Positions 1,736 through 61,000 of a DNA stretch of 64,000 nt are shown here, one piece after another. The DNA is taken from positions 15,050 to 79,049 of the forward strand of contig QZJZ01000010.1 in the NCBI GenBank assembly GCA_003599815.1, in the 5' to 3' direction. Position 1 is the stretch's first letter. Every line of letters begins with the position of its first letter. The notes under the pieces were generated by a model that saw nothing but the letters and a program-made list of their open reading frames with translations, had not been told where the DNA came from and searched no databases. The translations under genes were made by a program, and so were the position numbers. Source of the stretch: Candidatus Auribacter fodinae (GTDB lineage Bacteria > Auribacterota > Auribacteria > Auribacterales > Auribacteraceae).

Positions 1736-1742
1736 AAAACTA

Positions 1743-2525: not shown

Positions 2526-2558
2526 TTATTTTCCTCCTGAACTATATATTATATATTG

Positions 2559-3332: not shown

Positions 3333-3370
3333 ATTTTCCTCCTGTATACTTTTTTCTGCAGGAGCTAAGA

Positions 3371-3387
3371 TGCAATACGTATGCCAA
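3371..3387 (-). promoter_or_regulatory. Sigma-54 (RpoN) -24/-12 promoter for the flgF-flgG-flgA-flgH operon
   Basis: The minus strand reads TTGGCATACGTATTGCAT. That is GG-N10-GC with the TGGCA and TTGCA contexts, matching the TGGCAC-N5-TTGCA consensus. It lies about 40 nt upstream of the flgF ATG. Confidence 0.5.
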
Positions 3388-3556
3388 TACACTTTTTTTC
3401 ACCGGTTGACAAAATCTAAGCTTATATTAAGTTCATACTGGCTATTTTCGAATATGTTGCAAATATCAACAAACTGTTTGAATTAATTTCACAAAGTGCT
3501 GACAGGAAAAATTTTCCTACCGCAAACAGCACAGAAAAATATCTCTGTCTGTTAGC

Positions 3557-17005: not shown

Positions 17006-17692
17006 TTATAATAATTGAGAATATGTCTGCCACCATGCGGCAAACTGTTTATTAAACCAGCCGGTACTTCCGGCAAGCAATTCACACCGTTCATACCATC
17101 CAAGAATTATTATTTCATCTAAACCGGTTACAGCACTAAAAAAAGGCTTATTTTCAGATTCAACGACCGGCAGTTCGTGACTCAGTTTATACAGTTTATC
17201 CCATATTTTCGGGTATCGGGCAAGAAAACCCGATTCCATGCCTTCATCTTTTATGCGACAATTCCGGCAATGTATAGATGCCGCGCTTCCCTGAGGGTAT
17301 TCTATACCCCAGAAAATGTCCGGCACCTCCCTGCCGTAGACCCTGCATGAAAAAGGACGGACAGGGTATATCAGGCATCTGCCGTTATCACGAAACACAC
17401 ATTTTCGTTCCTTTGGTTCAGCATAAAAAAAACGCGCGTGTTCATCAACTGAAAATTTATCATATATATATTGTGCTATCGCATAAAACTCAATGGTATA
17501 AATTAGCGGCAGGCTCATGAAATTACCATTTTCATCACAGGCTGAATCAAGTTTTGTACAACACCAGTCACCGCATTCGGATTTCATACACTGTGTGGGA
17601 GGCACGCTGTCAAGCAATGAACATAACTCTACTATTCGCTCTTTAGCACTCCTCGTATGCTTAAGGATAGAATCCATTAGCAACGCCTTCAT
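17006..17692 (-). CDS. YkgJ/UPF0153-family CxxCxxCC Fe-S/zinc-chelating domain protein; FliB (flagellin lysine-N-methylase)-like
   Basis: Cys cluster ...CMKSECGDWCCTKLDSAC... plus downstream ...RCLIYPVRPFSCRVYG... are typical of the PF03692 family to which Salmonella FliB belongs. It lies in a flagellin-modification operon. Confidence 0.55.
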   Translation of the reverse strand: MKALLMDSILKHTRSAKERIVELCSLLDSVPPTQCMKSECGDWCCTKLDSACDENGNFMSLPLIYTIEFYAIAQYIYDKFSVDEHARFFYAEPKERKCVFRDNGRCLIYPVRPFSCRVYGREVPDIFWGIEYPQGSAASIHCRNCRIKDEGMESGFLARYPKIWDKLYKLSHELPVVESENKPFFSAVTGLDEIIILGWYERCELLAGSTGWFNKQFAAWWQTYSQLL

Positions 17693-19563
17693 GAATCGCT
17701 ACCGACATTATTTTTGAACTCATCAAAATTTTTTATAAACATTGAGCATTGTTCAATAAGACGCTGGAAAATTGTTTTGTCTTTGTTGACCAGATCTTTC
17801 AGCCCATCAAGGTTATCCTTGTCAATGGTATCTATTGATCCGAGATCCTTTTTCGCCTGTAATACCATGATATCGGTAATATTATTTCCCAGCAACCGGA
17901 ACACATCTTTTCTGCTGTGCAATTTGCGAGATATAGAAGCCCAGTCTTTGAAAAACTGGTACAACCGCTGATTCGACATATTGTTGTTCTTCACATATTT
18001 TTCTATTGAGTTCAGTATTTCTACTCCATCTGAACAGATCGATACGACATCTTTCAATCCCTTCACTGCGGCATTTATTTTTTGAACAAGGAGATTCCGG
18101 TTACATTCAGGTTTGGCATTATACGCAGTGTGAATCGTGTTTTTGGTATCTATTTGCTGTGACGCTTTACGCAGGATAAATTCTTTTAAAGACAACGGTT
18201 TTGCGCCCGCAATATACGCGCCTCCTTCAGTAAGGTCGTAACAGTCCGGCTTATGTTTATCGAGCAGATCCTCAAAATGTTTCAGGAACACATGCATGGA
18301 TGTGGTGGTAATAACCCTGCCGCCAAAAATATCCTGAACCAGAACCGTGTCTTTCTGATCCTGACTGACCGAACTTTTGCGCACCATAGCCGAGCCGCGG
18401 ACATGGGTCATTTTGTCTGGGAACGACAAGTCCTGCCCTACCAGCCCGACAGGCGTAAGCCCCAGCTTTAACGCCAGCATAAGTGCGGTATGCGCAACAG
18501 AAAGCCCCTTATCCATATTGCCTTTATTTTCCACCGCATCCGATAACCAGTCACAGAGCGATTTGCCCGGCAGCGACATCATAAACTTCGGGCCTTTATA
18601 TCCATAAGTAATGTCAGGATAGACTTCAGGATCGACAATAAGCGCGGTGTTCAGTTCAGGTATTCCCTGAAAATAACGCGCATTATGTTTGGTATAATCA
18701 ATACTCACTACGATATCAGGTTCGATCCCGTGTTTCAATAACACCCTCAAGGCGGTATCCACAGAAATAATAACCGCTTTACCCTGAGCCTGTTTCAGAT
18801 ACCGTATATTTTTATTTAGCGACGGCCCTGCGGATACAACAATACCTGGAAAACCGACAAACTTATTGAATAATTTATTTATCCCCGGCGTACTGACGTA
18901 TGCCGGCATATTCCTGAAAATGTTCGTTGCAAAGTCTTCTGAAGCTTTGATCTGCGATACGGTATTGACCCGCGCCCATTGAAACGTGTCGCGTATCTTT
19001 TCACCAATAGTATTGTAATACGCAGGGTCAATTTTTCCTGAAGCCTGATGACTGACAACAGTAATTCCGTTAGCGAAAAGAGTTATGGCGCATCCCTGCA
19101 GTGCTCGAAAAATGTCCATAGGAGAACGGTCTACCGCGAAATATATTTTTGTGACACCGTAGAATTCACGTAAATCAGCGTGAGACAGGAATGCCTTGAA
19201 AACCGCAGGATCTTTTTCGATCACCAAAATAAAATCCCTTGATTTAGACCGGGATACAAGCTCTTTCACATGGTATCCAAGCCCTAACCCAAGTACAGCT
19301 ATGTTCACGTGCGGCGTCATTGTCAAGCTGTCGATAAAACGTGTTGCCTCTTTGACAGGGTCATACATACTGTGCAGCATCGCATCGCCATGTTTTAGAG
19401 TAGGCACGCCCGTACGCGACTCAACAACAGATATATGTCCGTTATTTCCATTATTATTGCAAAGAGCGGCAACATCAGCGGCAATATCGGGCTGATTCTG
19501 CTTGATAAGTTCAATATTGCGTTTTAAACGGTACTGAACTGACTGCTGAAGAGTATCGACCAT
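17689..19563 (-). CDS. Motility accessory factor (Maf/DUF115) family paralog, 624 aa
   Basis: IVVSAGPSLNKNIRYLKQAQGKAVIISVDTALRVLLKHGIEPDIVVSIDYTKH is the Maf/DUF115 core. The architecture is similar to the paralog at 8537-10024. Confidence 0.75.
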   Translation of the reverse strand: MVDTLQQSVQYRLKRNIELIKQNQPDIAADVAALCNNNGNNGHISVVESRTGVPTLKHGDAMLHSMYDPVKEATRFIDSLTMTPHVNIAVLGLGLGYHVKELVSRSKSRDFILVIEKDPAVFKAFLSHADLREFYGVTKIYFAVDRSPMDIFRALQGCAITLFANGITVVSHQASGKIDPAYYNTIGEKIRDTFQWARVNTVSQIKASEDFATNIFRNMPAYVSTPGINKLFNKFVGFPGIVVSAGPSLNKNIRYLKQAQGKAVIISVDTALRVLLKHGIEPDIVVSIDYTKHNARYFQGIPELNTALIVDPEVYPDITYGYKGPKFMMSLPGKSLCDWLSDAVENKGNMDKGLSVAHTALMLALKLGLTPVGLVGQDLSFPDKMTHVRGSAMVRKSSVSQDQKDTVLVQDIFGGRVITTTSMHVFLKHFEDLLDKHKPDCYDLTEGGAYIAGAKPLSLKEFILRKASQQIDTKNTIHTAYNAKPECNRNLLVQKINAAVKGLKDVVSICSDGVEILNSIEKYVKNNNMSNQRLYQFFKDWASISRKLHSRKDVFRLLGNNITDIMVLQAKKDLGSIDTIDKDNLDGLKDLVNKDKTIFQRLIEQCSMFIKNFDEFKNNVGSDS

Positions 19564-22054: not shown

Positions 22055-22642
22055 ATGACAAAGCCAAAAATGAGAAAACGCCGCAATTATTTTATAAATA
22101 AACAGGTGCAGGGAATATACGCGCTCTTTATAATTATGAGCGTCAGCATCATTTCATTGCTGGTCAGCATGGAAATTCTCAGGTCTTTTTACAAAACTTT
22201 CGGCGACGTTGGAGAACAATCATTCTTTAATCATATTGATATGGTCTTTGTCATAAAGGTATTATTACTGCTGATCCTTGGAAGCCTGCTTATCGGCGGA
22301 CTTTCGCTCTTCGCATCGCATCGTATCGCCGGTCCTATCTTCAGATTAAATTCCAGCCTGAAAAAATTGACAAAAGGTGAACTCAAGGAACGGGTTTCGT
22401 TTCGTAAGAACGATTATTTTCAGGAAGTCGCGGCAAATTTCAATTCGCTTGCCGAAGCGCTCGAAACAAAAGTAGTGAACGAACAAGAAAAAATCGCTGA
22501 AATGGAACATAAAGTTGATGATATTGTTAAACAGCTTGAACTGGTTGATTTCGATAGAGAAACCACTTTAGTATCACTGGAAGAACTGAAACGGCTGATC
22601 GAAGAATGCCAGCGCGATATTCGTGAAGAACGCGGTTTTTAA
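22055..22642 (+). CDS. Small membrane protein with two TM helices and a HAMP-like domain
   Basis: Two hydrophobic segments are followed by ...HRIAGPIFRLNSSLKKLTKGELKERVSFRKNDYFQEVAANFNSLAEAL, which is a HAMP-type linker. A coiled-coil tail follows. Confidence 0.55.
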   Translation: MTKPKMRKRRNYFINKQVQGIYALFIIMSVSIISLLVSMEILRSFYKTFGDVGEQSFFNHIDMVFVIKVLLLLILGSLLIGGLSLFASHRIAGPIFRLNSSLKKLTKGELKERVSFRKNDYFQEVAANFNSLAEALETKVVNEQEKIAEMEHKVDDIVKQLELVDFDRETTLVSLEELKRLIEECQRDIREERGF

Positions 22643-31587: not shown

Positions 31588-33396
31588 TTAGCAATACTTG
31601 ATCTGGCTCGCTTGGTCAATCAGGTCATCAGGTGTTGCCGCTTCATTCGGGTATGCCGCGTCGCCCACCCGGACAACAACATTTTTTCCATTCAGCAAAG
31701 CGCATAAACCGGAATGAATTTGTTTTGATTTTTCGCCGGCAGACATTCCCGGGCAAAGAATAACATATACCTCCGGTGTTGCCTGAGAAAAACAATCAGT
31801 TCCACTGAGTACTTGTGAGAAAACTTCATTAATCTCGGATAGCGAACAGGCTCCTGACTGCAATACTGCCTCAAGCCCTTCCATTTCTACAATAATCAGT
31901 ATTCCTCCTGATCCGGACTGAGCGGCAACTGCAATCGTTTTTTCCAGTTTATCCTGAAAAGCTTCCATATCCACACTTTTCGGCTTTTCCTTGATTTTTG
32001 GCTGTTGCGGCAATATTGATGGAGCAGGCTGTTTCAATATGCTCTTCTGAGTAAGATGATTTACCTCTGGTTCACGTGGTTTCAGGATAGTCGGTCCATT
32101 CTGCATAATTGCGTCGCTTTTTACGATATCCAACTTCTTCTCTGTGTCCTGTGTAACGGGTTGAAGAGGTGCGTTGGGTAAAACAACCGTCGCTTTGGAT
32201 GCGTCCTGTTCATGTTGCGACTCAATAACGTTCTGTAAAAAGTTCTTCATATCGTCGCCTGTATCATTCAATGAAATATCTACCTGAAGTATTTCATCGA
32301 CATCATCAGGAACAGACACAGCCTCAGTAATTTCTTCTTCCTGTTCAGTCATCTTTTCAAAAATGGATTTGTTTAATGCTTTTCTATACGCCTCTCGAGC
32401 GGAAATAACCTTTTCCATTACAAGCTTTGATAATGACTGATCCATTGTACAGTTGCCTTCCTGCTTGCTGGTCTCCATAATTGAGGAAATCTGATGTGAT
32501 TTTCCTTCACGAATCAGATTAGCAACACCCGGATTGACAACCAGCACTTCATGAACAGCCACCCTGCCTTTTTTATCTTTTCGTTTCAATAACTGCTGAG
32601 CAATAATGCCCTTCAGCGATGACGCCAGCATTGTCCGTATCTGTTCCTGCTGGTTTTCAGGGAACACATCGATAATACGGTTAATTGTTTTTGGCGCACT
32701 GTTAGTGTGAAGAGTACCAAAAACAAGTATCCCCATTTCAGCCGCCGTAATTGCAAGGGATATGGTCTCAAGGTCACGCATTTCCCCCACCAGAATCACA
32801 TCAGGGTCTTCACGCATCGCGGCACGCAAGGCGTTTGCGAATGAACGAGTATGACGTCCGACTTCACGATGCGAAATAATGGACTGTTTTTCTTCGTGCA
32901 CGAATTCCAACGGATCCTCAATCGTTATTATATGCAATCGGCGATCTGTATTAATCAAATCGATCAGCGCGGCCAGTGTCGTTGATTTACCTGAACCGGT
33001 CGGGCCGGTAACCAGTACAAGGCCGCTTTTCAGATAAGTAAAATTACGAATAGTCTCCGATACTCCCAATTCATCACATGAAAATACCTGCGACGGGATC
33101 ATCCTGAATACTGCACAGACGCCGTTATTCTGCCGGAAAATGTTACCGCGATAACGAGATACTCCTTTAATTTCATAGGACATATCAATGTCATTGTTAT
33201 TTTCAAAAGAAGCTATCTGGTCAGCATCCATTATTTCATACAACAGCGACTTATTGAATTCAGAAGTCAGCACATCAAGAGACGTGCGCCTCATCACACC
33301 ATTCAGGCGTACTATTGGAGGGTCTCCCGGCACCATGTGCAAGTCAGAAGCATTATGTTCAGGCAACAGTTTCAGTATCTGATCTATTTTAGCCAT
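31588..33396 (-). CDS. PilT/PilU-family type IV pilus retraction ATPase paralog with ~260 aa C-terminal extension (putative degenerate GGDEF-like domain)
   Basis: It has a Walker A box (LVTGPTGSGKSTTLAAL) and the PilT core to about residue 345. The C-terminal tail has GGDEF-like secondary-structure blocks (ILIIVEMEG..., ...EVYVILCPG..., ...VVVRVGDAAYP...DDLIDQAS), but the GG[DE]EF motif itself is absent. Confidence 0.8.
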   Translation of the reverse strand: MAKIDQILKLLPEHNASDLHMVPGDPPIVRLNGVMRRTSLDVLTSEFNKSLLYEIMDADQIASFENNNDIDMSYEIKGVSRYRGNIFRQNNGVCAVFRMIPSQVFSCDELGVSETIRNFTYLKSGLVLVTGPTGSGKSTTLAALIDLINTDRRLHIITIEDPLEFVHEEKQSIISHREVGRHTRSFANALRAAMREDPDVILVGEMRDLETISLAITAAEMGILVFGTLHTNSAPKTINRIIDVFPENQQEQIRTMLASSLKGIIAQQLLKRKDKKGRVAVHEVLVVNPGVANLIREGKSHQISSIMETSKQEGNCTMDQSLSKLVMEKVISAREAYRKALNKSIFEKMTEQEEEITEAVSVPDDVDEILQVDISLNDTGDDMKNFLQNVIESQHEQDASKATVVLPNAPLQPVTQDTEKKLDIVKSDAIMQNGPTILKPREPEVNHLTQKSILKQPAPSILPQQPKIKEKPKSVDMEAFQDKLEKTIAVAAQSGSGGILIIVEMEGLEAVLQSGACSLSEINEVFSQVLSGTDCFSQATPEVYVILCPGMSAGEKSKQIHSGLCALLNGKNVVVRVGDAAYPNEAATPDDLIDQASQIKYC

Positions 33397-34465
33397 TGTT
33401 CTCCTCCTTAAGAAACTGTCTGAACTGAGTCTTATCCTGAGCGAAAGCATACGCTTTCTGAGGAGAAATAACGCCGTTTTTAAGTAAATCCATAATACTA
33501 TCGTCCATCATGCACATACCTGACTTGGCTTTTCCGCTCTGAATAATGGACGGTATTTGAAACGTTTTGTTATCGCGAATCATATTTGCCAGAGCAGACG
33601 TATTGATCAGCAATTCCGCCGCGACAACCATTCCCTGCTTATCAGATCTGGGTATAAGCTGTTGAGATAATACGCCTTTCAATGATTCAGCCAGCATAAT
33701 GCGCACTTTATTCTGTTCACCCGGCGGAAACACATCAATAATACGGTTTACCGTACCAACCGCATCAGTAGTGTGCAATGTACCGAAAACAAGATGACCC
33801 GTCTCAGCCGCCGTAAGCGCTAGAGATATGGTTTCTAGGTCACGAAGTTCGCCCACCATAATCACATCAGGGTCTTCACGCAGTGCTGACCGCAATGCCG
33901 CAGTGTAACTTTTGGTATGAATACGGACTTCACGCTGGTTAACCACACCGCGAAGGTTTTTATGTATATATTCTATCGGATCTTCAATAGTGAGAATATG
34001 GTCAGCCCTGTTTCTGTTTATAAGGTTAACCATGGAGGCAAGTGTCGTGGTTTTTCCACTGCCCATGGGCCCGGTTACCAGAACCAGTCCCTGATGAAGG
34101 TCGGTAAAATTTTTAACCGCTGGAGGCAACCCGAGATCATGGAGTTCAGGTATAGTATCCGGTATCAGCCTGAATACGCCATTTACTCCGCCGCGGTACT
34201 GCATGAACAAGTTACCGCGATACCTGTAATTATCGGTGGAAGTATAGGCAAAATCAAGGTCAAGGGACTGCTTAAAGAATTCGCTCTGTTCAGACGTGAG
34301 CATTGCAAACAACATATCATGAGAATTCGATACAACATCATCATTATCATTAAGATACGTTAGTTCACCATGAAGCCGGACAACAGGAGCACGTCCTGAG
34401 GCAATATGGATGTCAGACGCACCCTTTTCCCGGGCTTGCGCGAATAGTTCTTCGATTTTGAGCAT
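33389..34465 (-). CDS. pilT: Type IV pilus twitching-motility ATPase PilT
   Basis: 358 aa. LVTGPMGSGKTTTLASMVNLIN, ...ILTIEDPIEY... and ...VGELRD.ETI... are PilT hallmarks. Confidence 0.85.
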   Translation of the reverse strand: MLKIEELFAQAREKGASDIHIASGRAPVVRLHGELTYLNDNDDVVSNSHDMLFAMLTSEQSEFFKQSLDLDFAYTSTDNYRYRGNLFMQYRGGVNGVFRLIPDTIPELHDLGLPPAVKNFTDLHQGLVLVTGPMGSGKTTTLASMVNLINRNRADHILTIEDPIEYIHKNLRGVVNQREVRIHTKSYTAALRSALREDPDVIMVGELRDLETISLALTAAETGHLVFGTLHTTDAVGTVNRIIDVFPPGEQNKVRIMLAESLKGVLSQQLIPRSDKQGMVVAAELLINTSALANMIRDNKTFQIPSIIQSGKAKSGMCMMDDSIMDLLKNGVISPQKAYAFAQDKTQFRQFLKEENNG

Positions 34466-35540: not shown

Positions 35541-36110
35541 TTATGTTCTTTCTTTCGTTTTACTGTCTTTGTTATCTTTAAAGATCAGCGATTCATCTAT
35601 TGGTATGAACAATGTTGCCGCCACCTGAAGTTCCTGAGCAGTACTTCGTTCAAAAGCGACTACTTCCACCCTGCATCCGCGCGCTTTGAGCATTTCCACA
35701 AGAGGGACAAAATCGCCATCGCCAGTAACCAGCACAACAGTATCGACTTTATCTGATATGGCTATGGAGTCGATTGCGATCCCCATATCCCAGTCGCCTT
35801 TAGCGGTTCCATCAGGCCGTATTTTCAATTCCTTTTTCCGAATCTCATATCCCACTCTGGTTAAAACATCGATAAAACCGCTCTGATTAATATCTTCGTG
35901 TTGAACAATATACGCTATCGCCCGTATCATTTGCCGATCGCCGACAATCATGTCCATCAGCTTTTTAAAGTTAATTTTTGAATGGAATATATTTCGCGCG
36001 GAATAAAAGACGTTCTGAACATCAACAAATATGCCGATACGCTGGGGAAAATGACGGTATGTGTTAAAATCAAAATTTGCTTCATCCAAGTCATCTCTTC
36101 TAACTGCCAT
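35541..36110 (-). CDS. NYN-domain (LabA-like/DUF88) putative RNase
   Basis: ...IGIFVDVQNVFYSA...RAIAYIV...VVLVTGDGDFVPLVEMLKARGCRVEVVAF... carries the PIN-like Asp residues typical of NYN/LabA. Confidence 0.75.
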   Translation of the reverse strand: MAVRRDDLDEANFDFNTYRHFPQRIGIFVDVQNVFYSARNIFHSKINFKKLMDMIVGDRQMIRAIAYIVQHEDINQSGFIDVLTRVGYEIRKKELKIRPDGTAKGDWDMGIAIDSIAISDKVDTVVLVTGDGDFVPLVEMLKARGCRVEVVAFERSTAQELQVAATLFIPIDESLIFKDNKDSKTKERT

Positions 36111-43430: not shown

Positions 43431-43524
43431 ATATAATGAAAGTGTAATAAAGCATGCTCTTTTTTTGTATTAAGAATAACCATACGTGTATTCACTAATG
43501 ATTATAAACATAAGGAAACGCATT

Positions 43525-46500
43525 ATGAGCACACTCCCCCTTCGAAACAGTGGTATTCGCGTATTATGCGCAATAGTGATATCACTTGTACTAGCAATGA
43601 ACTGCACGCTTCTTTTTGCCCAGTCCAGCAATAGCAGAAAAATAACCCGCGACAGAGAATCCACGCCTGATCGGGATGAACACATCTTTTTACGACGCAG
43701 TCACATAAATACGCGGTTCCATGACAGAACAAAAATACCTCGTCAATTAAGGACACGTTTTGCAAACAGGTTCATCATACAATTCAGCGATACCATTGAC
43801 GAATCATGGATTAATCAGCTGAATGATGCCGGGATAACCCTCGTTTCTTATATTCCTGAAAACGCATATATAATCACCATGAAAGAAGACGCGCCTATCG
43901 ACTGGTCACAGTTCCCTTTTGTCACATGGGCAGGCCCATATGAAGCGTACTATAAGCTGTCTGATGAAATTATCGCCAAAATTGAAGAACAACAGGATGT
44001 ACAGCCGACAGAAGCGGATCAGGAATTTCCTGAAATAATCTCTTTGAATGTGCTCTTTTTCCCGGGGGAAGAAGAAAAAGCGATTGAACAGATCGAAAAC
44101 CTGTTCGGTGAAGTCGTTTCTACCGTCAAACAGGGTTCTTTATCAATGGCAACCGTCCTGATACCCAGTTACCATCTCGAACAGGTAGCGCAGATTGACG
44201 GTGTAAAATGGATAGAAAGCGAACCGCGCTTAGTAAAACATAACGATCTTTCACGCAACCTGACCGGAGTTACCGCAACACTGCTGTCACACGCAACCCT
44301 GACAGGACGCGGTGTCATAGTTAATGTAAATGATACGGGAGTTGACCATACTCATCCCGCATTTGCGCTTAATCCCCTGCTCCCCACAAGTTATCCAGAT
44401 AACAACACCCGCATACGATACTATTCATGGGGTTCAGGAGAACAGGGTGACACTGACGCCCACGGCACACATGTATCAGGGTCTATACTCGGCAATGGCG
44501 CACTTTCCAATACAATCATTTCCGCTCCGGGTTCAACATACCCGTACTCAGTAAAAGGTATGGCTCCCGATGCGGAACTGGTTCTTATGGAAATATTTAA
44601 TGGAGGCGGTATTGCGCACACTACTATTTTAAACACCGCCTATACGCAAGGCGCCCGCATATCGTCCAACAGCTGGGGATACAACGGTTTTTTCGGTCCG
44701 CTTGCGCAATACGATTCTAATGCCGCAATATATGATGCCGGAGTCAGAGATGCGTTAAATATGACTTCAGGAGATCAGGGTTTGACAATATTGTTCGCCG
44801 CAGGTAATTCCGGTGGAGGAACCACGAACGGCCTCGGCGGAAAACCCAATACCGTCGCTTCGCCGGGAACAGCGAAAAACGTGATTACTGTCGGTGCGTA
44901 CGAACTTAACAGAAACGCTGACAACCACAATAACGCGGCAAGCAATGACAACGTTGGCGAAGTATCTTATTTCAGCAGCCGCGGTCCTGTGGAACCGGGT
45001 ACAGACGGTGAATTCGGGAGATTTAAACCGGATATCGTCGCTCCGGGCGTCTATGTTCTTTCAACGCATTCTTCTCAGTCCGAGGATTCCGATTCGTCAC
45101 CGACATCGTGGGATTACAAAGCGGGTAATGTCGACTCCGGTCCCCGATACGAATTTATGTCAGGGACAAGCATGGCATGCCCTGTCACAGCCGGAGTCAG
45201 TTCTCTTATTTATCAATACTACCGAGACCTCGGCAAAGCCATATCTCCCGCCTTACTTAAAGCTCTGCTTATCAATGGAGCCCGCAGTCTGAGCGCAATT
45301 TACGATTTTAATACTAAAGCAGATATAATTTATCAGGGCTGGGGAGGAATCAATTTACAAAATTCTATAGACGGACCGAACGGCATTGGTGACGCGAACG
45401 ACCTGCTTGTCTTCGATCAAGGAGATTTAGGCCTCTTGGAAACAGGCTCCACAGCTACCACCATTATTGCGGTTAATGACCTTTCACGCCCATTGCGTAT
45501 CACGCTTGTCTGGACAGACCCGCCGGGAGACCCCGCCGCTGATATAACACTGGTCAATAACCTTGACCTGCTTGTCACCGCGCCTGACGGTAAAGTATAC
45601 AGGGGTAATAACTTTCCTAAAGGCAGTACATGGACGGCTCCGGACGGCGAACACGATTTTATTAACAATGTTGAAAACGTCTATATCGACTCAGCGCTCA
45701 TCGGCGCCTATACTATATCTGTTAAAGGAACCTCCATTAACGCTGATGCCTGCACACAAACTCCCGGTACAATAGATCAGGATTTCGCGCTGGTTATCTC
45801 AGGAAGTATGGGATTCGAACCGCAGAGCTTCGCTTTAATCACCGTCAATAAACCGGTATGTAATATCGGTGAATTTATTACTGTATCCGTCGCAGATAAT
45901 GACCTCGCCGGATCAGGGTCATGCACCGTAACCGTATCCAGCGAAACGGAAACAGGCGAACAAATGACTCTTCTCGAATCCGCAACTGATGGTGTGTTTA
46001 ATGGTACCATACAGGTTGACAACGGCCCAGTCCAGGCTGGCGACGGCAAAATTCAGGTGGTTCAGGGAGAAGATATTGTCTTTACTTTCATAGATCAGGA
46101 TGACGGACAGGGCAATTTTAATACTCCTCGAACGGCAACAAGCCGCAGTAATACACCCCCTGTATTCTCCGGACTGCAATCATTAACGGAAGAAGAAAGT
46201 CAGATAACCATTTCATGGACTCCTGCCGTTGATCAGGAATCGCCAATAATCTACCGCATTTTCCGTAGAAAAGCCGGAGAAAGTTTTGATTTTTTCAGGC
46301 CATATATGGAAACAACAGACTTCTCCTTTACCGACACAATAGTTTCAGCGATCGTCACCTATCATTACCTTGTCCGTGCGGTCGACAAATATAACTTGTC
46401 AGACAGCAATACAGTAGAGTTATCAGGCAGTCCGGATGACTCAGTACCTCCATCATTTGAAGGATTAAAGGACATCTCTGCCGGTGACAGTACCATTCAG

Positions 46501-49500
46501 CTTGTCTGGTCACCCGCCTATGATCCGAGTTACCCAGTTTCCTACAATATTTACCGGGCAACGACATCCGGCGCTCAGGATTTTAATACTCCCCTTCACA
46601 CGCTGGCAGATCTTACAAAATATACAGATAACACAGTCACAAACGGTATCATGTACTTCTATGTGGTACGCGCTATAGATGCTCTGGGCAATGAAGACAA
46701 CAATACAGTTGAACTGTTCGCACAGCCTGATACACCTCCAAGCAACGTTATTTTTGTTGATAAAGACCGGCTGGGCGGTGGAAACGGTACTTCATGGCTT
46801 CAGGCATACAATAACCTCAGCCTTGCTATTAATGACGCGCAATCAGGCGGTAATCAGATAATATGGGTAGCCGAAGGCACCTATTATTTCAATGATACTA
46901 TTGTTATTCCTAACGGCGTGAAAATTTACGGCGGATTTGCCGGCGACGAAGTCAGCGAAACAGCCCACGAAACCCGTAATCCGCTGGAGCATAAAACAAT
47001 CTTCAAGAATAATTCCTTCTTCGCGGAATCTACTGTCCAGCTTGGCGAGAATGCTCTTCTCAATGGTGTCTATGTCAGTAAATATTATTCCGTATTTTTC
47101 GATGGAGTTGCTATAACCACTGTCGATTCCGGTGCGGAAATTAACCAGTGTGTAATCTACGACTCCAAATGGGGCATTCACAATAAGTCAACGGGTTCAG
47201 GCACTAAAATTTATAACTGCGTATTTCTGAACAACGAAATAGGCGTAGTCATGGACCAGCCGACAGTATCTCTAATTAACAATACATTTCAATTTAATGA
47301 TACCGCGGTTTCCATACTCACCAGCGGAGCCGCAACAATTAAAAACAACATTTTCTACAAGTGTGATGATTATGCGGTAAAAAATACCGGTTCAAGTACA
47401 ACTATATCACTTAACTATAACAATTATTTTGAGAATGGCGACAATTATTTGAATTTGTCGCCCGGGAACAATGAACTGTACGACGACCCTATATTTATAT
47501 CGGAAGACCTGGATTTTCATCTTGGTAAAGGATCTCCATGCATTAACGCCGGTGCAGCGTTAATCAATGACTATGATATCGAAGGGCAAACACGTTCTTC
47601 TGCGGCTATTGATATTGGCGCGGATGAAGTTGAAGTTGTCGATACGCCTTCAACAGCTATGCTCTTTGAAATACTCAACGACCCTATCGGTATGGTCAAA
47701 ATAACCGCAACAGTCAGTGACCCTAACGGTGATCTATGCAGAATGAAGCTGGAACATAAGGATTTGCTTGATCGGAACGCTCCCTATTTTAACAGTATAT
47801 GCGATGGACCTATAAGTTCAGTGCTCGGCTCGCCGCCGGACATCACAAATGATATGGACTACCAAATCGGTTCCAAAACACCTCTGCAAACCTTGGTAGC
47901 CAATACGTTAACATTTTATTGGAATTCAGGCAAAGACGTGTATTTTAAATATCACGTTCCCGCGCCCCGAAAAGAGTATAATATAAAACTCCGTCTCACT
48001 GTTAATGACGGAAAAGCGGATGACACTGCACCGCCTCAACCGAGTTTATATCTTGATAACCGACCGGTTATGCTCACTGAACCCGAATTCACCATAGGCA
48101 CAACAAATACGGTTCACTGCAAAGCGATTGAGCAAGCGTCGCAGTTCTGGTTCCAGGCATCAACATCATCGGCGTTCTCATCCATATTTGCTCAGAGCGG
48201 GTGGATACCCACCTCGTCACATACATTTACCGGTTTGGCGCAAGGCACTCAATACTATTTCCGTACTAAAGCAAGAGCGCTAAAGACTACATCAGCCCAG
48301 TGGATTCAGACAAAATGGAATGAGTTTAACACCAATTCACTGACTGACATTGACGTTATTACTCAACCGTTATCTGCAATACTCAACAGCGATTTTTCGT
48401 GGAAAAATGAGTTAATCCTTGATAGAAGTTTTGAAAGTATGTCCGGCGACTGGACTACCGGCGAGTCGATCAATGCATCGTCGGACAGCCTGATTGTTCA
48501 GAAAAACGGTACATGGGCATCTGATGGTGCATACAGCGCCAAAATTGCCAATAATACAGAGTCATTGAACTATCCCAATGATTACGGATACGTTCGTCAG
48601 AGCATTAACTTAACCAATGTCAGCGCATTGTTGTTTGATGTTAAGTACGAAGCGCTCAACCCAACCGGGCTCAAGGTAAAAGGACAACTCCGTGTCGGCA
48701 GTAAAATCCTGTGGGAAAAGGCTATATCTGGCGATCATCTGAATCAGGAAGTTGATGTTTCAGACATTACCGGCGCACAAAACGTGGAATTCAGGCTGGT
48801 ATTTCTTGATTATGTGCTTTCCACCACTACTTCCGATTTGTTCTCCATGCACATTGACAACATGCGGGCAAAAGGCCTTCAGCTCTATGATAACGACGGC
48901 GGGGTTATGGTAACACCTGTAATTTCACCAACAACTTTTGTCCGCTGGGAAACATTGCAGTATTCAACTTCAAATATCACCGACGCTACGGATGTGACTA
49001 TAGATGTGCTCGATTCATCCGGCAACGTATTGCTGGCAGATGTTCTCAGTACAACTGACTTGATGTCAAACGGAATCACTGGCCCGATCAAACTGCGGGC
49101 AACACTATATTCCTCTGATCCGGCTCAGACACCTGCTTTGGATGAATGGAGTATTACCTACATTGAAAAAGAAAATGAGGCTATTGATTCGGAATATTCC
49201 ACATCAACAACGTCTTATCAGGATTTTGACACGGATAACGACGGGATGCCGAACCAATACGAAACATATTACTCAACTCATCTTGCTGACCCATCCGCAA
49301 TACCGCTTGACCCGGCTGTTGCGGATGGCTCGGTCGACAGTGATAATGACTCCAAATCCAACTTCTGGGAATATATTACAGGCACTGACCCAACTGATCC
49401 GGCTGATTTTATAGAAATGACATCTAACATCACTTACACTGACGGCGTTACTGCTGTGGTATTAACAATACCATCCAAGGACGCACGGTGGTATGAAGCG

Positions 49501-49659
49501 TTCTCCTCTGAATGTGATACATCAGCACCAGTATGGACTCAATTGGGTGAAACCATTCGAGGCAACGGACTTAATATAACCTTTACGGATACGGATGAGG
49601 ATCTTGAGATTCCGTACGAAAAGAAGATATATTTTATCCGCATAAAACGTGACAACTAA
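43525..49659 (+). CDS. Giant (2044 aa) secreted subtilisin-like serine protease (S8) with FN3-like, right-handed beta-helix and Ca-binding repeat regions
   Basis: Signal peptide MSTLPLRNSGIRVLCAIVISLVLAMNCTLLFAQ with an AAGGA ribosome-binding site. S8 catalytic triad motifs VNDTGVDHTHP (Asp), HGTHVSGSILG (His) and GTSMACP (Ser). Two FN3-like modules (PPVFSGL...ISWTP; PPSFEGL...LVWSP). A beta-helix cap ...GGGNGTSWLQAY...GTYYFNDTIVIPNGVKIYGGF and NNxF repeats. C-terminal D-x-D-x-DG thrombospondin-type-3-like Ca-binding motifs. Confidence 0.85.
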   Translation: MSTLPLRNSGIRVLCAIVISLVLAMNCTLLFAQSSNSRKITRDRESTPDRDEHIFLRRSHINTRFHDRTKIPRQLRTRFANRFIIQFSDTIDESWINQLNDAGITLVSYIPENAYIITMKEDAPIDWSQFPFVTWAGPYEAYYKLSDEIIAKIEEQQDVQPTEADQEFPEIISLNVLFFPGEEEKAIEQIENLFGEVVSTVKQGSLSMATVLIPSYHLEQVAQIDGVKWIESEPRLVKHNDLSRNLTGVTATLLSHATLTGRGVIVNVNDTGVDHTHPAFALNPLLPTSYPDNNTRIRYYSWGSGEQGDTDAHGTHVSGSILGNGALSNTIISAPGSTYPYSVKGMAPDAELVLMEIFNGGGIAHTTILNTAYTQGARISSNSWGYNGFFGPLAQYDSNAAIYDAGVRDALNMTSGDQGLTILFAAGNSGGGTTNGLGGKPNTVASPGTAKNVITVGAYELNRNADNHNNAASNDNVGEVSYFSSRGPVEPGTDGEFGRFKPDIVAPGVYVLSTHSSQSEDSDSSPTSWDYKAGNVDSGPRYEFMSGTSMACPVTAGVSSLIYQYYRDLGKAISPALLKALLINGARSLSAIYDFNTKADIIYQGWGGINLQNSIDGPNGIGDANDLLVFDQGDLGLLETGSTATTIIAVNDLSRPLRITLVWTDPPGDPAADITLVNNLDLLVTAPDGKVYRGNNFPKGSTWTAPDGEHDFINNVENVYIDSALIGAYTISVKGTSINADACTQTPGTIDQDFALVISGSMGFEPQSFALITVNKPVCNIGEFITVSVADNDLAGSGSCTVTVSSETETGEQMTLLESATDGVFNGTIQVDNGPVQAGDGKIQVVQGEDIVFTFIDQDDGQGNFNTPRTATSRSNTPPVFSGLQSLTEEESQITISWTPAVDQESPIIYRIFRRKAGESFDFFRPYMETTDFSFTDTIVSAIVTYHYLVRAVDKYNLSDSNTVELSGSPDDSVPPSFEGLKDISAGDSTIQLVWSPAYDPSYPVSYNIYRATTSGAQDFNTPLHTLADLTKYTDNTVTNGIMYFYVVRAIDALGNEDNNTVELFAQPDTPPSNVIFVDKDRLGGGNGTSWLQAYNNLSLAINDAQSGGNQIIWVAEGTYYFNDTIVIPNGVKIYGGFAGDEVSETAHETRNPLEHKTIFKNNSFFAESTVQLGENALLNGVYVSKYYSVFFDGVAITTVDSGAEINQCVIYDSKWGIHNKSTGSGTKIYNCVFLNNEIGVVMDQPTVSLINNTFQFNDTAVSILTSGAATIKNNIFYKCDDYAVKNTGSSTTISLNYNNYFENGDNYLNLSPGNNELYDDPIFISEDLDFHLGKGSPCINAGAALINDYDIEGQTRSSAAIDIGADEVEVVDTPSTAMLFEILNDPIGMVKITATVSDPNGDLCRMKLEHKDLLDRNAPYFNSICDGPISSVLGSPPDITNDMDYQIGSKTPLQTLVANTLTFYWNSGKDVYFKYHVPAPRKEYNIKLRLTVNDGKADDTAPPQPSLYLDNRPVMLTEPEFTIGTTNTVHCKAIEQASQFWFQASTSSAFSSIFAQSGWIPTSSHTFTGLAQGTQYYFRTKARALKTTSAQWIQTKWNEFNTNSLTDIDVITQPLSAILNSDFSWKNELILDRSFESMSGDWTTGESINASSDSLIVQKNGTWASDGAYSAKIANNTESLNYPNDYGYVRQSINLTNVSALLFDVKYEALNPTGLKVKGQLRVGSKILWEKAISGDHLNQEVDVSDITGAQNVEFRLVFLDYVLSTTTSDLFSMHIDNMRAKGLQLYDNDGGVMVTPVISPTTFVRWETLQYSTSNITDATDVTIDVLDSSGNVLLADVLSTTDLMSNGITGPIKLRATLYSSDPAQTPALDEWSITYIEKENEAIDSEYSTSTTSYQDFDTDNDGMPNQYETYYSTHLADPSAIPLDPAVADGSVDSDNDSKSNFWEYITGTDPTDPADFIEMTSNITYTDGVTAVVLTIPSKDARWYEAFSSECDTSAPVWTQLGETIRGNGLNITFTDTDEDLEIPYEKKIYFIRIKRDN

Positions 49660-49803: not shown

Positions 49804-49864
49804 AGTATTGTATTTTTTTTACATTTACTGAGTGTCACCGCCACTAAAGGATTATATACATAGC

Positions 49865-52800
49865 ATGAAAGCAAAGAAGTATTTTTATACATTCTGCACG
49901 ATCCTCTTTCTTATTACATATTGTGCATTCAGCCAAAATACAATTAATCACTCATATGGTGAAGAACCTGCCATATCCAGCCGTTCAGAAACCGCATACG
50001 AACCTTCACTTCGGGAAATTCTGGATACGCGATCATACTCTTTAATTGACTGGTACAAGGGAAATTCCAACGTATTTATACTCAATATACAGGATTTTCA
50101 CGGCAATTATGCCACTCAAAAAAAATATTCCGCCCTATTCGAGAGCCTTATAAAAAGCAATCACACGTTCAATATTAAATATATTGCTGTCGAAGGGGCT
50201 TCAGGCATTATAGACACAACAACCGCCTCAACATACCCCGATGAGGCAACACGTAATGAAGTCGCTAATCAATTTTTGAATAGAGGATTTATTTCAGGCA
50301 TAGAGTACTACTCTATTACCGCTGATGATGCTCCGCCTATCATCGGGATCGATGATGCTTCCCTGTATAGAAAAAATGCTGAATTGTTTCTCCGTCTTCA
50401 GGATGAGAACAGCGAGGAAATAAAACGTGCCTCCGCCTTTATGTCATTTGTACAGCAGGAATCCGCCGTTGTAATTAATACTATTCTTTCAGAGGATGAA
50501 AGAATTATTGTCACAGCTTTCACAGAATGGGTAACCAGCCGCATTTCGTCACTGGAGTATCTTCAGCAGATCAGCACTGTTAAACACGGTTCCGGCTTAA
50601 TTCCGCGTTACGCATCGCTCGACCGGCTTCGACACGCTGTAAAATTACAAACTGAAATAATGTATGACCAGCTAGAAAGGGAAAAACTGGAGTTCCTTCA
50701 CTCTGTTCACGCAATTATTCTTCCTGATGAGTATAATGAGTTATCCAAAAACATCATGCGTGCGTCTGTGGGGTCAATTGCGTCTGACGCGGTATACGCA
50801 AAAATTAGTGAAATAGCTGAACGTTATTCCCTGTCTCTTGACACATATCCAACTATTACCAGCATGACAATCATATCCAAAGCGTTTTCTTCTGTTACCG
50901 AGCAAGAGCTTCGGAAAGATTTGTTCTCATTTACGACTGAACTTGTTTCATCTGTCCCCGGACATCATCAGAGTATCACGGATATCCTTGCGTACGTCCG
51001 CATGACAGCCGTCATTGACGCTGTTACACAAACCCGCGCATCAAGAGAAGAATACGACTTTTACAAGAGTCAGTTTGAATCAGCATCCGCAGAAAAACTG
51101 CTTGATACTTTCAAGAATATCACCGGCAAAGATTTATTTGAAGGAACAAACGACACTGAATTACGCAATGTAGACTATATCCTGTCCATGGCAGATCAAT
51201 TCTATCAGGAAGCGCTTAAGCGTGACCAGCTCCTGCTTGAAAACAGCCTCCGTGTAAACCAGAAACTGAACGGCAAAACTATCGTTATGGTTACAGGCGG
51301 GTTTCATTCGGATGGGATAGCCGCGCTGTTAAAAGAACGGTCTATTTCATATGCTATCATTCGCCCTTATCTTGGAGCAGGCAGTTTAGAGTCAAACTAT
51401 AAATCCCTGATGTTTAACCAAACGCCTGCTTTCGACCACATTCTGTCTGCGTTGCCTGGCATGCTGATGCCCTCCTCAAATTTCAGGAATATTTTATACC
51501 CGGCAAATAAAGCGGTTCTACTGGCAAAGTGGATAATTATATCCGAAGCGATAAATCTTGCGCGGGAATCACAAAAACAAATACTCACCGCTGAATATCT
51601 CGCGTCAAGCATTACCGCCCATCAGACAAAATGGCTTGAGGAACTCCGCAGTGAACTTGACTCACGATATAAACCCCTTATCACCGCAGGCATAGCCACA
51701 CCAAAAGATATAGATGTAGAATTTGAGCGTTTCAGAGAAATATTGAATGCCATTGAATTTGATAGAAACGCCTATGCCGTCTACAACTTAATTCCAATAG
51801 TCATTCATGGTGAAACGCCCCATCGGATCATACTCAGCGTAAGTCCGGATAGCACAGTCACACCTCAACTGCCCGATTTTATAGATCTGCTGGATGACTA
51901 CAAAAACCCCTACTATCATTTTCGGATCTGGAACGAAGCAGAGCTGGAACACTATACCCGGCTGTCGGATATAATTGAAAGCAAAGATCTCGAATTATCA
52001 ACTGAAGCGCGCCAAAACATCCTTGTCCTTATGGATTTGTTCGGGTTAGAAACAGTCGACCAGCTTATTGAGGATATGCCCTCCTCAGCTTTAAATTCTC
52101 TGTTGGAAAGCCTCCCTGATTATGAGGAATTAAAACAGTTTGTCACCATGGCAGGGCATGAAAACGCGACTGAACTGCTGATATGGGACCCTCAAGGCTT
52201 TTTCAATTTGGTCTACACGTTTGAGAACATAGACGATACCGAACTTCAGACAAATTACATAGAACTATTGCTGTCACAACGACCGTCTTACCAGAATGGC
52301 GCGGGCAAAATGCCGGAATTCGTTATACAGCAGGCTTCTCTGTATGATGTTGATGAATGGATGCAGTACGGTATACCCAGAACGTTCAGCAGAGAACATT
52401 GGGAATCGGCAGATACAAATGATTTCTTCTACAAAGCTATGGCCGCTAATGGAACAGTCATAGGGTTAATCAGCGCCCGTATAGCTGAAGGACATAACCT
52501 AGTTTATGTTGATTTTCTGGAAACCTGTTCTACCGTTCAGCATAAAGGTATTGGGACAGCTCTTATCAAATCTATTGTTGCAGAAAGCCTTCGGAGCGGC
52601 TTTGACGGTTCCGTTGCGCTTGATCCGCAATTCGGATCCAAGCCATTTTACACAAAATTAGGATTTATTGAGCAAACCAAAGGCAACACCTACCTACTCT
52701 TGCCGGAAGAAAACGCACTGAAGCTGTTAGGATCGCCCGAAGACATTAAACGGGAATCCAAAGTAAAAATAGATGAACAGCGTCTTGCAGAAATAGCATC

Positions 52801-55800
52801 ACTGCCGCAACTTCAGATAATCGAGCAGATAATCCCGCTTTTTCAGCGTTACAACAGCCTCACCAACGACAACAAATTACTCCTGATCAGTCAGCTGATG
52901 GCGGTGTACAATCTGAATCAGGAGCAGGCATTGAACGAACTATACATGATGTTGTCCAGCCCGTCTGTTTTCACAAACAAACTAACGGAATTGTATGATC
53001 TCATGATGGATACATGGATAACCTCTCAGGAAACCACGGACGAACTGCCTAATGCCGTCATTCGCCCTACACTCGGGCAATTGCCTGATGAAATGCAGGT
53101 TACATTTCCGCTTTTTCACCCTAAATATACATCTGTTCTTTTTTCTTTAATCGAACTTAACAAAACAACATCGCCTACTTCATTTGATGCTCCTTTGCGC
53201 GACACCCCTTCCGCTCTGAAATTTATACGGTACATGCTCCAGCAAAATGCGCTGTTTATGGACGTTGTTGCTGTACCTGAGAACGATCCCCGCATTAGCG
53301 GCAAAACCGCAACCCTGGAAGACAACATCCTTTACATCAACGAAAACGCTACCCGTGCCGAATTGTGGTTCTATCTTCCTCATGAGATTTCGCACCTGTT
53401 TAAAAATGAAACTGCCGCCCGGCTTCATGACGCCGACAATATCAATCATTTAAAAAACATAGCGAAAACGCTCCGGGAAGTTGCGGTTCAACTGCCCGTC
53501 GGAGAACGTAAGGATATGCTGATACAAATGTCGTCAGCAGTAATGAAGCACGCATTATCCTTTGAATTGGACATCCATACTGCTTATATGCAGTTAACGA
53601 CTCCCGGAAAGAACATTCTGAGAAACAACAACCTGCCTTATTTCGATACGGAAAATGAATTATACCTTGCTTCTATTGCGGGCGCGGCGTCCCGGCTCAG
53701 GGAACCGGTTACGGATTTAAAATTATTTTCTGAAATAGAAAAGCTTGCGGCAGATGCCAGCGTATCTGTGGACCAACTGACAGCCAGAGTAAACCGGATA
53801 GTTACCCGAAAGATAATTAACAATTCTCTCGAACAAATAAAACCCTATCAAAACGATATTGATGAGATAATTCAAAACTGGCTGAAAAAACAAATTAAAC
53901 ACCGTTTATGGCATTTCACAACACACGCCATGCCCCGTGATTTGCGCCCCTTTGTAACAACATCCTCTCGTGAACTTGGATACCTTGATATAAATGATAT
54001 CCGCACACGAATCGTCGCTCATATTAGATCAATTGAAGATCCCAAAGCAAAAGCCGATTTTGAAGAAATTGTTGCGAAATGGCTTAAACGACTAATATCT
54101 GATAATATTAAATCGCTTAACTTACCCAGTGACCTGCGTTCCGCATTGAATGACGGCTGTTCCAATTGTCTCGGTTATGCCAAACTCTATCGCGCCTTAG
54201 GGTTTCAATTCGGGCTCAACATCGAAGTCACTCTTTATTATTACGAAACGAACGATGTTCCACACCTGCATGCCGCGAATTTAGTGCTTCTTTCTGATGG
54301 ACATCGCTATCTTACTGATATTGGTGACCTTACACAGTATTCACCTCCCTCGCATGTGTGCGTACAACTCGAATCGAGTACCGGGCTTACACCCGCAACG
54401 ATCACCATGCAGGATTATTTAATACATAGCAGAATTATCCGAGGTGTTCCTGAAGAATATGTCAGCGCCTTCGGATATTCTAACAAAGCCTATGACTTAT
54501 TTGTCTACGACTCACGTGTTGAACAGGCATTCCATGCGATTTCAAAAGCGTATGCCCTCGCTCCCGGCAACCCGTACATCGCCTCTAACATGGCAGAGAT
54601 ATCTTTCAGCCATTGGAAGAGATCTCTTACCAGCTTGGGAATCCAGCCGTCTCAAGAGGAACTCCTTGATAAACTTCGCGAATTGTATGAACAATATCAA
54701 TTGCATATCAATTCAATGGAATCCCTGAACAACTACTACAAGGCACAATTGAAAAGCGCGGCGAGAATAGCAAAAGTAGAAATGGTAAACCCCATTAACG
54801 GCGGCAACGGTAATTTCAGGTTCCCGCTATACCAGAATGTACAGAAAAAACAGGAACCGGCAGAAACAGCGGAAACGCAGAAGCCGCAAACACCATCACA
54901 GCCTGTTGACCGTGAAACAGCCGCAAAAAACGATGCAATGGCGCTCGATCATCTTCAGAGAATGGGCGAGATGAACCGCATTGCCCATGGAATCACACCC
55001 ACACAACAAGGATCAAAAACGGAAAATGCCCTGTTTCAATACAAAGTCAATCAATTGCTTGGTACCGGTATAGACTACAACACTGCACGCAGTCTTATAC
55101 AAACAGGAGCGGCTCTGCAAAAAATGATTGAACAACAACAGTTTCAACAAGTAAATGCACGCCTGACGGGGCTTGACCCTCATTTTGCAGAACGGATTAT
55201 GATCGAATTCCCGTATATCATGGCCTACTTACTGGAAATTTATCCTGAATGGTGGAAAGGAAAAGAACTCCGTGAACTCGCTCGCCAGCACCGGCTGACT
55301 GAAGAGGTAAAAGCAATGGTGAGAAAACAGATGACTACTGTAACGGCAACTCAGTCATCACAGGATCGTGACAACATTCGACGCCCTTATGAGTTTAACC
55401 CGCTGTGGACAATCGCCCGAGACCGCGCCAAATTATTGAACAGCCTTGAAAGAGCATATGAACAGGATAGAATTACCGATCAGCAATACCGCGCAATTTA
55501 TAGCCTTCTTACTGCAGATTCCCCTGTTTCAAAAGAATCTTTATCATATGAACAAAGAAGGGTCTTATTTGGCAAAGAAGATGAAATACCTGTACCCGGC
55601 GGATTATCTGTTAGCAATAACTTTATACTCGGAGACACGTTCATCGACGTTCCTAAAACCACTGAATTCAGCACATACGCATCATTCCTTACTACACTTG
55701 TTGATGAGCATCCTCAGGAACTCGCTCTTGTCCTGAATGATATGGATCAGGAACCGTTTCTCGCGGGTATCGTTGCGGCCCGCAAAGGAAAATCTTTCAG

Positions 55801-60487: not shown

Positions 60488-60985
60488 TCAATTCAGAAGC
60501 ATATCCAGATGTTTCTTCACATCTTCCATCGACGAAGCGTCTATAATGGTATCCACGCGGTAATCGTCGATCTGACTGCCCGCCAGTTTAGCGCTCCAGC
60601 CGCCTGTAAAACTGCATGCGACTATCTTTTTTCGGTACTGCCATGCATACGCCAGTTCCGACAAAGTACCGGTCGCACCGCCAATGCTGATAATCAGGTC
60701 GCCGGACAAAACATTAAACAGATTACGGGCATACCCTATACCAGTGGGAATGACCACAGAGCAATATTCGTTCGCTTCGTCAAACTCCGTACCGGGCAAA
60801 ATCCCTATCACAATACCTCCGTGATCAGCGGCGCCGCGTGACACCGCCTGCATGACACCGGATTTGCCTCCGCTGATGGTTACAAAACCACGCAATGCTA
60901 TCTCGGAACCGATCTGATACCCAATTTCAATCTGTTCAGCAGATGCGTCGCGCCCACCGATAACCACAACTTGTTTATAGCGCAT
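60488..60985 (-). CDS. LOG/TIGR00725-family Rossmann-fold nucleotide-binding protein
   Basis: ...VVVIGGRDASAEQ...ISGGKSGVMQAVSRGA...GIVIGILPG...GGATGTLSELAYAW... match the LOG/YvdD-like family signature GGxxGxM...PGGxGTxxE. Confidence 0.7.
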   Translation of the reverse strand: MRYKQVVVIGGRDASAEQIEIGYQIGSEIALRGFVTISGGKSGVMQAVSRGAADHGGIVIGILPGTEFDEANEYCSVVIPTGIGYARNLFNVLSGDLIISIGGATGTLSELAYAWQYRKKIVACSFTGGWSAKLAGSQIDDYRVDTIIDASSMEDVKKHLDMLLN

Positions 60986-61000
60986 GTATTCTCCCACGCG

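Follow-up and report, generated by a model that had tools for sequence, protein, structure and literature searches.

A PilT-family ATPase fused to a degenerate GGDEF domain in Candidatus Auribacterota

The 64,000-nucleotide (nt) stretch of Candidatus Auribacter fodinae DNA examined here (the window; GenBank assembly GCA_003599815.1, contig QZJZ01000010.1, positions 15,050 to 79,049 of the forward strand) carries on its minus strand a gene in which a complete PilT motor is tethered to a conserved, catalytically dead GGDEF-fold domain. The gene lies beside a second pilT in a conserved, lineage-restricted operon, and we refer to it as the pilT-GGDEF fusion gene. A preliminary description made from the sequence alone had proposed a catalytically dead GGDEF-like domain fused to a PilT paralog, and this proposal is now supported by profile searches, by the predicted fold and by the loss of the catalytic site. 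The fusion is a new domain architecture built of known parts, and a full-text literature search found no description of a PilT-GGDEF fusion. Auribacterota metagenome-assembled genomes (MAGs) have been reported with type IV pili, in a paper that does not mention PilT or cyclic di-GMP (c-di-GMP) (PMC9324843). The gene and its parts, with lengths and residues in amino acids (aa), are as follows.

31588..33396, minus strand: whole pilT-GGDEF fusion gene, 602 aa plus stop; ATG at 33396, stop at 31588-31590
32371..33396, minus strand: PilT ATPase module, residues 1-342, identified by TIGR01420, solved PilT structures and invariant motifs
32182..32370, minus strand: acidic linker and strand-helix-strand-like element, residues 343-405, conserved across 14 orthologs
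31978..32181, minus strand: variable Pro/Gln/Lys-rich spacer, residues 406-473, predicted to be disordered
31591..31977, minus strand: compact degenerate GGDEF-fold domain, residues 474-602, identified by family profile, AlphaFold2 and Foldseek

The minus-strand open reading frame (ORF; 31588..33450) offers two candidate starts. A AAGGAGGAG ribosome-binding site is found 6 nt 5′ of the ATG at 33396 and the orthologs start at the equivalent position, so we take the product to be 602 aa long; a 620-aa product from the upstream ATG is unlikely, as the start is M-A/P-K/R-I/L-D (MAK/MPR-ID) in all orthologs. The tail had been placed at residues 360-620, a range that has to be corrected to 343-602, and its length of 260 aa agrees with the ~260 aa first estimated.

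The fusion protein is 99% identical to P0001, from an NCBI MAG of Candidatus Auribacterota, and a whole-protein search returned 14 long relatives, 531-633 aa in length (P0001-P0010 and P0012-P0015), that cover the entire query, showing that orthologous PilT-GGDEF fusions exist. The named relatives come from Candidatus Auribacterota MAGs or from unclassified ‘bacterium’ MAGs. Searching 185,579 species-representative genomes with alignment A3 gave five full-tail loci, all in uncultured Auribacterota-type MAGs; four of these encode P0004, P0008, P0005 and P0009 exactly, and the fifth (L010, 551 aa), which has no exact stored match, is apparently the complete version of P0015, which is truncated. 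When the tail was searched with phmmer against 1.84 billion representative proteins only P0004, a member of the family, was recovered (E=2.9e-10), a second match to a 3740-aa protein being discarded as low complexity, and this single-sequence search showed the domain neither on its own nor fused to another partner. A word-indexed homolog search with the tail or with domain alignment A1 gave no match, even though the 99%-identical P0001 is in the same database, so this null reflects a limitation of the tool and not absence. A metagenome pattern scan yielded no new members among the matches listed, which were dominated by the generic NLIREGKS. Outside the uncultured phylum Candidatus Auribacterota we did not find the PilT-GGDEF fusion.

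By sequence, residues 1-342 are a complete PilT, and every diagnostic feature of the family that could be looked for was found. The module scores 450 bits against TIGR01420 (PilT/PilU family; cutoff 319.1), with residues 4-342 covering model positions 2-340 of 343, and matches Pfam T2SSE at 1e-49. Among solved structures it scores 345 bits to Pseudomonas aeruginosa PilT (3JVU/3JVV), 341 bits to Geobacter PilT (6OJX) and 235 bits to PilU, and it is ~60% identical to Desulfuromonadales PilT proteins. Walker A is GPTGSGKST at 131-139 (G131-T139), followed by an Asp box (E160/D161), a Walker B with the catalytic Glu (DPDVILVGEMRD at 197-208), a His box (H230) and GVANLIRE at 290-297, in which N293, I295 and R296 are invariant and which holds the NLIRE core of AIRNLIRE, a helix characteristic of PilT as opposed to PilU. 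In alignment A2, of 36 sequences, none of these NTPase motif residues varies. Pfam did not find an MshEN/T2SSE_N domain in the fusion protein, and the PilT N-domain starts the protein directly. The gene therefore seems to encode a working-looking pilus-retraction ATPase, for which retraction activity is predicted. Known PilT proteins (3JVV/3JVU, Geobacter metallireducens PilT4 6OJX, Aquifex 2EWV) align end to end with residues 1-342 and have the NTPase boxes in common, but they stop at ~345-375 aa, whereas the fusion protein has 260 additional C-terminal residues with a folded domain. A separate protein, P0011 (818 aa, from an ENA metagenome), has an unrelated architecture in which an N-terminal extension is followed by what appear to be two tandem PilT-type ATPase modules.

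It takes the family profile and the fold to reveal the GGDEF homology of the tail. The window sequence alone has no Pfam match of that kind; searching with the 260-aa tail or the 129-aa domain returned no GGDEF match and only a weak Csa5 at E=0.053. We therefore built a profile from alignment A1 (14 rows, with the window sequence in place of the 99%-identical P0001 in A1 and A4). Against PDB this gave full-length matches to diguanylate cyclases, including PA0575 (5M3C, E=3.3e-8) and Thermotoga maritima TM1788 (1e-6); GGDEF proteins account for 20 of the 25 sequences listed. Nine of the 14 members also match PF00990 (GGDEF) individually, the best at 1.4e-8, and five relatives carry a precomputed weak PF00990 flag. 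The domain is ~125-135 aa long among orthologs and ends in a conserved K-Y/F-Y/F.

Structure prediction agrees with the profile. An AlphaFold2 model of the window C-domain, made with the family alignment, has a predicted local distance difference test (pLDDT) score of 92.1 and a predicted template-modelling (pTM) score of 0.86, with secondary-structure elements in the order alpha0-beta1-alpha1-alpha2-beta2-beta3-alpha3-beta4-alpha4. In a Foldseek search against PDB the top 50 matches were all GGDEF domains, none being PilZ or STAS, with E-values down to 3.3e-7, query-normalised TM-scores of 0.54-0.79 (nearly all 0.7-0.79) and 11-22% sequence identity to solved GGDEF domains. The tail domain is thus predicted to be neither disordered nor one of these other folds. 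The four sequence blocks first picked out as GGDEF-like also fall into place in the predicted fold, with ILIIVEMEG (499-507) as strand 1, EVYVILCPG (542-550) as the strand 2/3 hairpin, VVVRVGDAAYP (574-584) as a later strand and DDLIDQAS (590-597) as the last helix. It could be argued that the resemblance is due to chance and that the tail is an alpha/beta domain with no relation to GGDEF, given the low identity to solved GGDEF domains and the missing Pfam match for the window sequence itself. We consider this extremely improbable, as independent profile (E=3e-8) and fold (top 50 GGDEF) evidence agree and the blocks are in register with strand 1, the RxxD, the GGDEF hairpin, the SxGxA..yP and the ADxA helix. 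The evidence supports the C-terminal domain being a GGDEF homologue with a GGDEF fold.

The absence of a GG[DE]EF motif, noted in the preliminary description, is real: the window protein has TPEVY at 540-544, the family consensus is NDQVY, and Val or Ile stands at the catalytic fourth-position Glu in 14/14 members. There is also a 5-residue deletion opposite KHINDSLGHPIGD of GTP-bound PA0575 (5M3C), with no conserved Asn or Asp there, and the protein terminates inside the ADxALYxAK..GRN helix, so that the phosphate-binding Lys and Arg are gone. The roles assigned here to the guanine-recognising Asn/Asp, the phosphate-binding Lys/Arg and the catalytic Glu are those known from PleD and WspR. Judged by these motifs, the C-terminal domain cannot make c-di-GMP. 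A remnant of the A-site might instead bind a mononucleotide (GTP or ATP) and so inform the motor about energy or nucleotide levels. Mononucleotide sensing has been proposed for the degenerate GGDEF domain of GdpP/YybT, and E504, the first metal-binding position of strand 1, is invariant in the fusion family, but the base-recognition segment is deleted, both GGDEF acidic residues are lost and the C-terminal Lys/Arg helix is truncated, making such a sensor very unlikely.

Nine residues of the domain are invariant in the family (E504, G507, D534, C548, P549, G578, P583, A596 and S597), E504 aligning with the first Asp of DxDxFK. Cys548 (window 31753-31755) is the sole one of these left unexplained by the generic GGDEF core; it comes immediately before the conserved Pro with which the former GGDEF hairpin ends, giving ILCP where the canonical sequence is ILLP. 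Across the 14 members mean pairwise identity is 39% for the C-terminal domain and 78% for the ATPase. Reading frames kept open in ~14 clusters, the nine invariant positions and the conserved KYY-type C-terminus all point to selection on the tail. The opposite case would be a tail that is a drifting evolutionary relic in the window lineage, with little or no function. The domain does evolve ~3x faster than the ATPase (61% vs 22% mean pairwise difference), and the window clade is the most derived, having lost the I-site, gained a spacer of ~70-100 aa and changed G to N in the linker core iGqFVES. Nevertheless, the window protein has an intact reading frame and keeps all nine invariant residues and the C-terminal KY motif, its domain is modelled with high confidence (pLDDT 92), and the window and P0002 domains, only 41% identical, both keep the fold signature. 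A relic is for these reasons quite unlikely.

In canonical GGDEF domains the inhibitory site (I-site) for c-di-GMP is an RxxD near the active site. The corresponding tetrapeptide of the fusion family precedes the former GGDEF by exactly five residues, and RxxD is kept in 10/14 aligned members, seven of which also have a second arginine that we take to be the equivalent of PleD R390; by alignment, its position in the following helix is the ‘aERI’ position of TM1788 and PA0575. The window protein has SGTD at 531-534 and Gln559 at the second-arginine position, so both parts of the motif are missing. Both arginines are likewise absent from P0002 (DGDD and Lys) and from P0004 and P0008 (HxxD and Lys), and P0001, read from its sequence and alignment as it is not in the 14-row table, has SGSD and no RxxD arginine. 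It appears from these sequences that the two arginines tend to be kept or lost together. The ten RxxD members belong to four subclades only 28-50% identical, and 14 of 133 columns are invariant among them, including the R and D of RxxD, which suggests that the I-site is under constraint in the RxxD-bearing lineages. Going by sequence, the ancestral domain and 10/14 members look like the I-site receptors PelD, PopA and CdgA, degenerate GGDEF domains established as c-di-GMP receptors that bind through this site (PMC3974145).

The suggestion that pilus retraction could respond to c-di-GMP is therefore affected differently at the two levels. Looking for RxxD gave a negative answer for the window protein and a positive one for most of its relatives, and on these motifs c-di-GMP sensing is plausible for the family and unsupported for the window ortholog. 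Conceivably the window protein could still bind c-di-GMP, through non-canonical residues, and act as a receptor in its own right, with ligand-bridged tails switching retraction on or off. D534, the Asp of RxxD, is invariant in the family, most relatives have a complete I-site under apparent constraint, and the established receptors named above provide the precedent. However, Ser replaces the RxxD arginine and Gln559 the second one, P0001 (SGSD) shares the loss of the first and P0002 (DGDD, Lys) the loss of both, and the domain has few other conserved basic residues, which leaves a receptor role for this ortholog unlikely.

Between the two folded modules the ortholog alignment shows, in order, an acidic stretch, a conserved element of ~40 aa, a Pro/Gln/Lys-rich stretch and the C-terminal domain. 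What had been called a ‘long low-complexity linker’ fits residues ~406-473, which are Pro/Gln/Lys-rich, and not the ~40 aa at 366-405, whose conservation had been missed. The core of this element (residues 366-405, window 32182-32301, minus strand) has the consensus vLqVdl...iGqFVESImd...keTiiiP and no relative in PDB or in Pfam. It may be a true contact point with the ATPase or a partner. An MshEN-like c-di-GMP motif was considered for it and rejected, as by eye iGqFVES does not fit RLGxx(L)(V/I)xxG. The stretch between the element and the C-terminal domain varies from ~5 to 115 aa among orthologs and is long in the window protein and in P0002; no DNA tandem repeat was found in the spacer. 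The AlphaFold2 model of the full-length protein, made from 36 sequences, has a pLDDT of 63.6 and a pTM of 0.37. It places a low-confidence helix at 381-399 in the conserved element and gives a pLDDT of about 29-31 for residues 392-469, which are predicted to be disordered, and of 75-88 for the degenerate GGDEF domain.

The fusion gene is the last of a four-gene operon with gaps or overlaps of 1-9 nt, the other three genes being as follows.

33389..34465, minus strand: upstream pilT paralog of plain length, 358 aa; TIGR01420 434 bits
34475..35539, minus strand: conserved secreted protein, 354 aa, second operon gene; signal peptide, no Pfam family
35541..36110, minus strand: NYN (LabA-like) domain protein, first operon gene; PF01936 1.4e-36

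The preliminary description had the fusion gene in tandem with a canonical pilT in an operon beginning with an NYN gene and a gene for a secreted acidic protein, and the family scores of both ATPases, the PF01936 match and the signal peptide bear this out. The stop of the upstream pilT overlaps the start of the fusion gene by 8 nt, and its product is 47% identical to the fusion ATPase, scoring 322 bits to Aquifex PilT, 308 to P. aeruginosa PilT and 211 to PilU. Of the two tandem ATPases, that of the fusion protein is by sequence the more PilT-like. All four genes recur with their order unchanged in the related loci L001/L002, L003 and L004/L005, where the fusion proteins are 51-53% identical to that of the window and the NYN gene keeps its position (L001-L004). 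The flanks are also syntenic, with RecO, DUF502, CorC, YbeY and PhoH on one side and a dGTPase-like HD protein and NAD synthase on the other, so gene order is generally conserved in this lineage.

In the secreted protein a signal peptide is followed by an acidic region that is variable, whereas the ~215 aa at the C-terminal end are well conserved. Its orthologs (L001:5740-6597, L003:7893-8930 and L004:7684-8922) always lie between the NYN gene and both pilT genes, and besides a coiled coil the family shares a beta-rich block (PADIILLxNGESxEGVIR...) and, in its helical end, the near-invariant motif YWRYYHR. A defence-system reading of the NYN/ATPase cluster was rejected, as PADLOC returned only weak generic P-loop and generic NYN (LabA-like) matches.

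Each PilT hexamer would display six tethered degenerate GGDEF domains, which could act as a regulatory or recruitment module through pairing of neighbouring tails or partner binding. In this way the tail would control where or when the second retraction motor engages the pilus machine. Since the tether is long, disordered and variable in length, we favour recruitment or cross-linking over a lid held rigidly against the ATPase. Neither I-site arginine survives in the window lineage, whose spacer is much longer and whose linker element has diverged, and because of the lost arginines canonical c-di-GMP binding is unlikely in the window ortholog. For this ortholog we lean, by a little, towards a tail that is a ligand-independent partner-binding or dimerisation module. 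For most family members, in which the I-site is intact and apparently constrained, c-di-GMP-dependent pairing or partner binding is the most economical reading, and we hold it tentatively. It is also possible, though doubtful, that the family is the first c-di-GMP receptor built directly into a pilus retraction motor and the window lineage a natural I-site-loss variant rewired to ligand-independent control. In that case, wherever the I-site is intact (7-10 members), intercalated c-di-GMP dimers would bridge the degenerate GGDEF domains of neighbouring subunits, or link them to a partner, and so gate retraction.

Several observations weigh against a regulatory tail of this kind. The full-length model, which is poor (pTM 0.37), does not dock the tail onto the ATPase with any confidence, and the conserved residues of the C-terminal domain belong mostly to the fold core, so that an interaction surface cannot be pinpointed. 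RxxD is common, being found in 44-57% of GGDEF domains (PMC3974145), and by itself says little for receptor function. No active diguanylate cyclase was found in the scanned parts of the 64-kb window. GGDEF, EAL and PilZ genes were likewise not seen among the window ORFs scanned, and the window contains no Rfam families, c-di-GMP riboswitches included.

PilT/PilU tandem pairs (PilU 9N32) resemble the window genes in that two adjacent retraction-type ATPase paralogs share one operon and the second has a C-terminal extension. The PilU extension is short and not a GGDEF domain, and unlike in these pairs both window paralogs score much higher to PilT (345 and 308 bits) than to PilU (235 and 211). 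PelD, PopA, SgmT and CdgA also have a GGDEF fold without the catalytic motif, and the RxxD kept in 10/14 fusion-family members is a further likeness. However, in those proteins the domain is combined with receiver, GAF or membrane modules rather than with a motor ATPase, and the window ortholog differs further in lacking both arginines and in having a domain of ~125 rather than ~160 aa with a truncated last helix.

Known c-di-GMP input to type IV pili is on the extension side, through the MshEN domains of MshE/PilB and through FimX-PilZ-PilB, and we know of no case in which a second messenger acts directly on the retraction motor PilT. These systems use an N-terminal domain or separate adaptors on extension motors, whereas the fusion has a C-terminal GGDEF-type module on a retraction motor. 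What they share with it is a second-messenger-related module physically coupled to a motor of the T2SSE family, as in MshEN of MshE/PilB/PilF and in FimX-PilZ-PilB (PMC4624772, PMC8389850, PMC5595344, PMC11731258). A PilT fused to a GGDEF-derived, receptor-type domain is a concrete and testable candidate for second-messenger input to retraction, and family members with and without the I-site arginines are natural, ready-made controls. It would also add to the cases in which an enzyme domain that has lost its activity is put to new use as a tethered regulator. The weight of the finding is limited by the uncultured hosts, the small family and the lack of a ligand-binding signature in the window copy.

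Elsewhere in the window, flagellar basal-body genes (FlgH, FlgA, FlgG and FlgF-like) and two Maf/MptE-like proteins among sugar-modification genes are found at 126-3392, 8537-10024 and 17689-19563, all on the minus strand, and the organism probably has glycosylated flagella besides its PilT motors. Two giant ORFs are adjacent on the plus strand: 43486-49659 (2057 aa) combines a subtilase S8 domain with a beta-helix and fn3, and 49832-56314 (2160 aa) has a GNAT acetyltransferase at residues 848-945 as its sole recognisable domain, leaving ~2000 aa without an assignment. A 195-aa protein with only a HAMP domain (22055-22642, plus strand) adjoins the HisRS and AspRS genes and occupies the same position in L001, L003 and L004; in the relatives a conserved ORF of ~47 aa comes next. 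Finally, 60488-60997 (minus strand) encodes a stand-alone SLOG cluster-4 (LDcluster4/DprA-like) protein of 169 aa, the neighbour of which (61001-62854) is a TPR/PMT_2 glycosyltransferase-like membrane protein.

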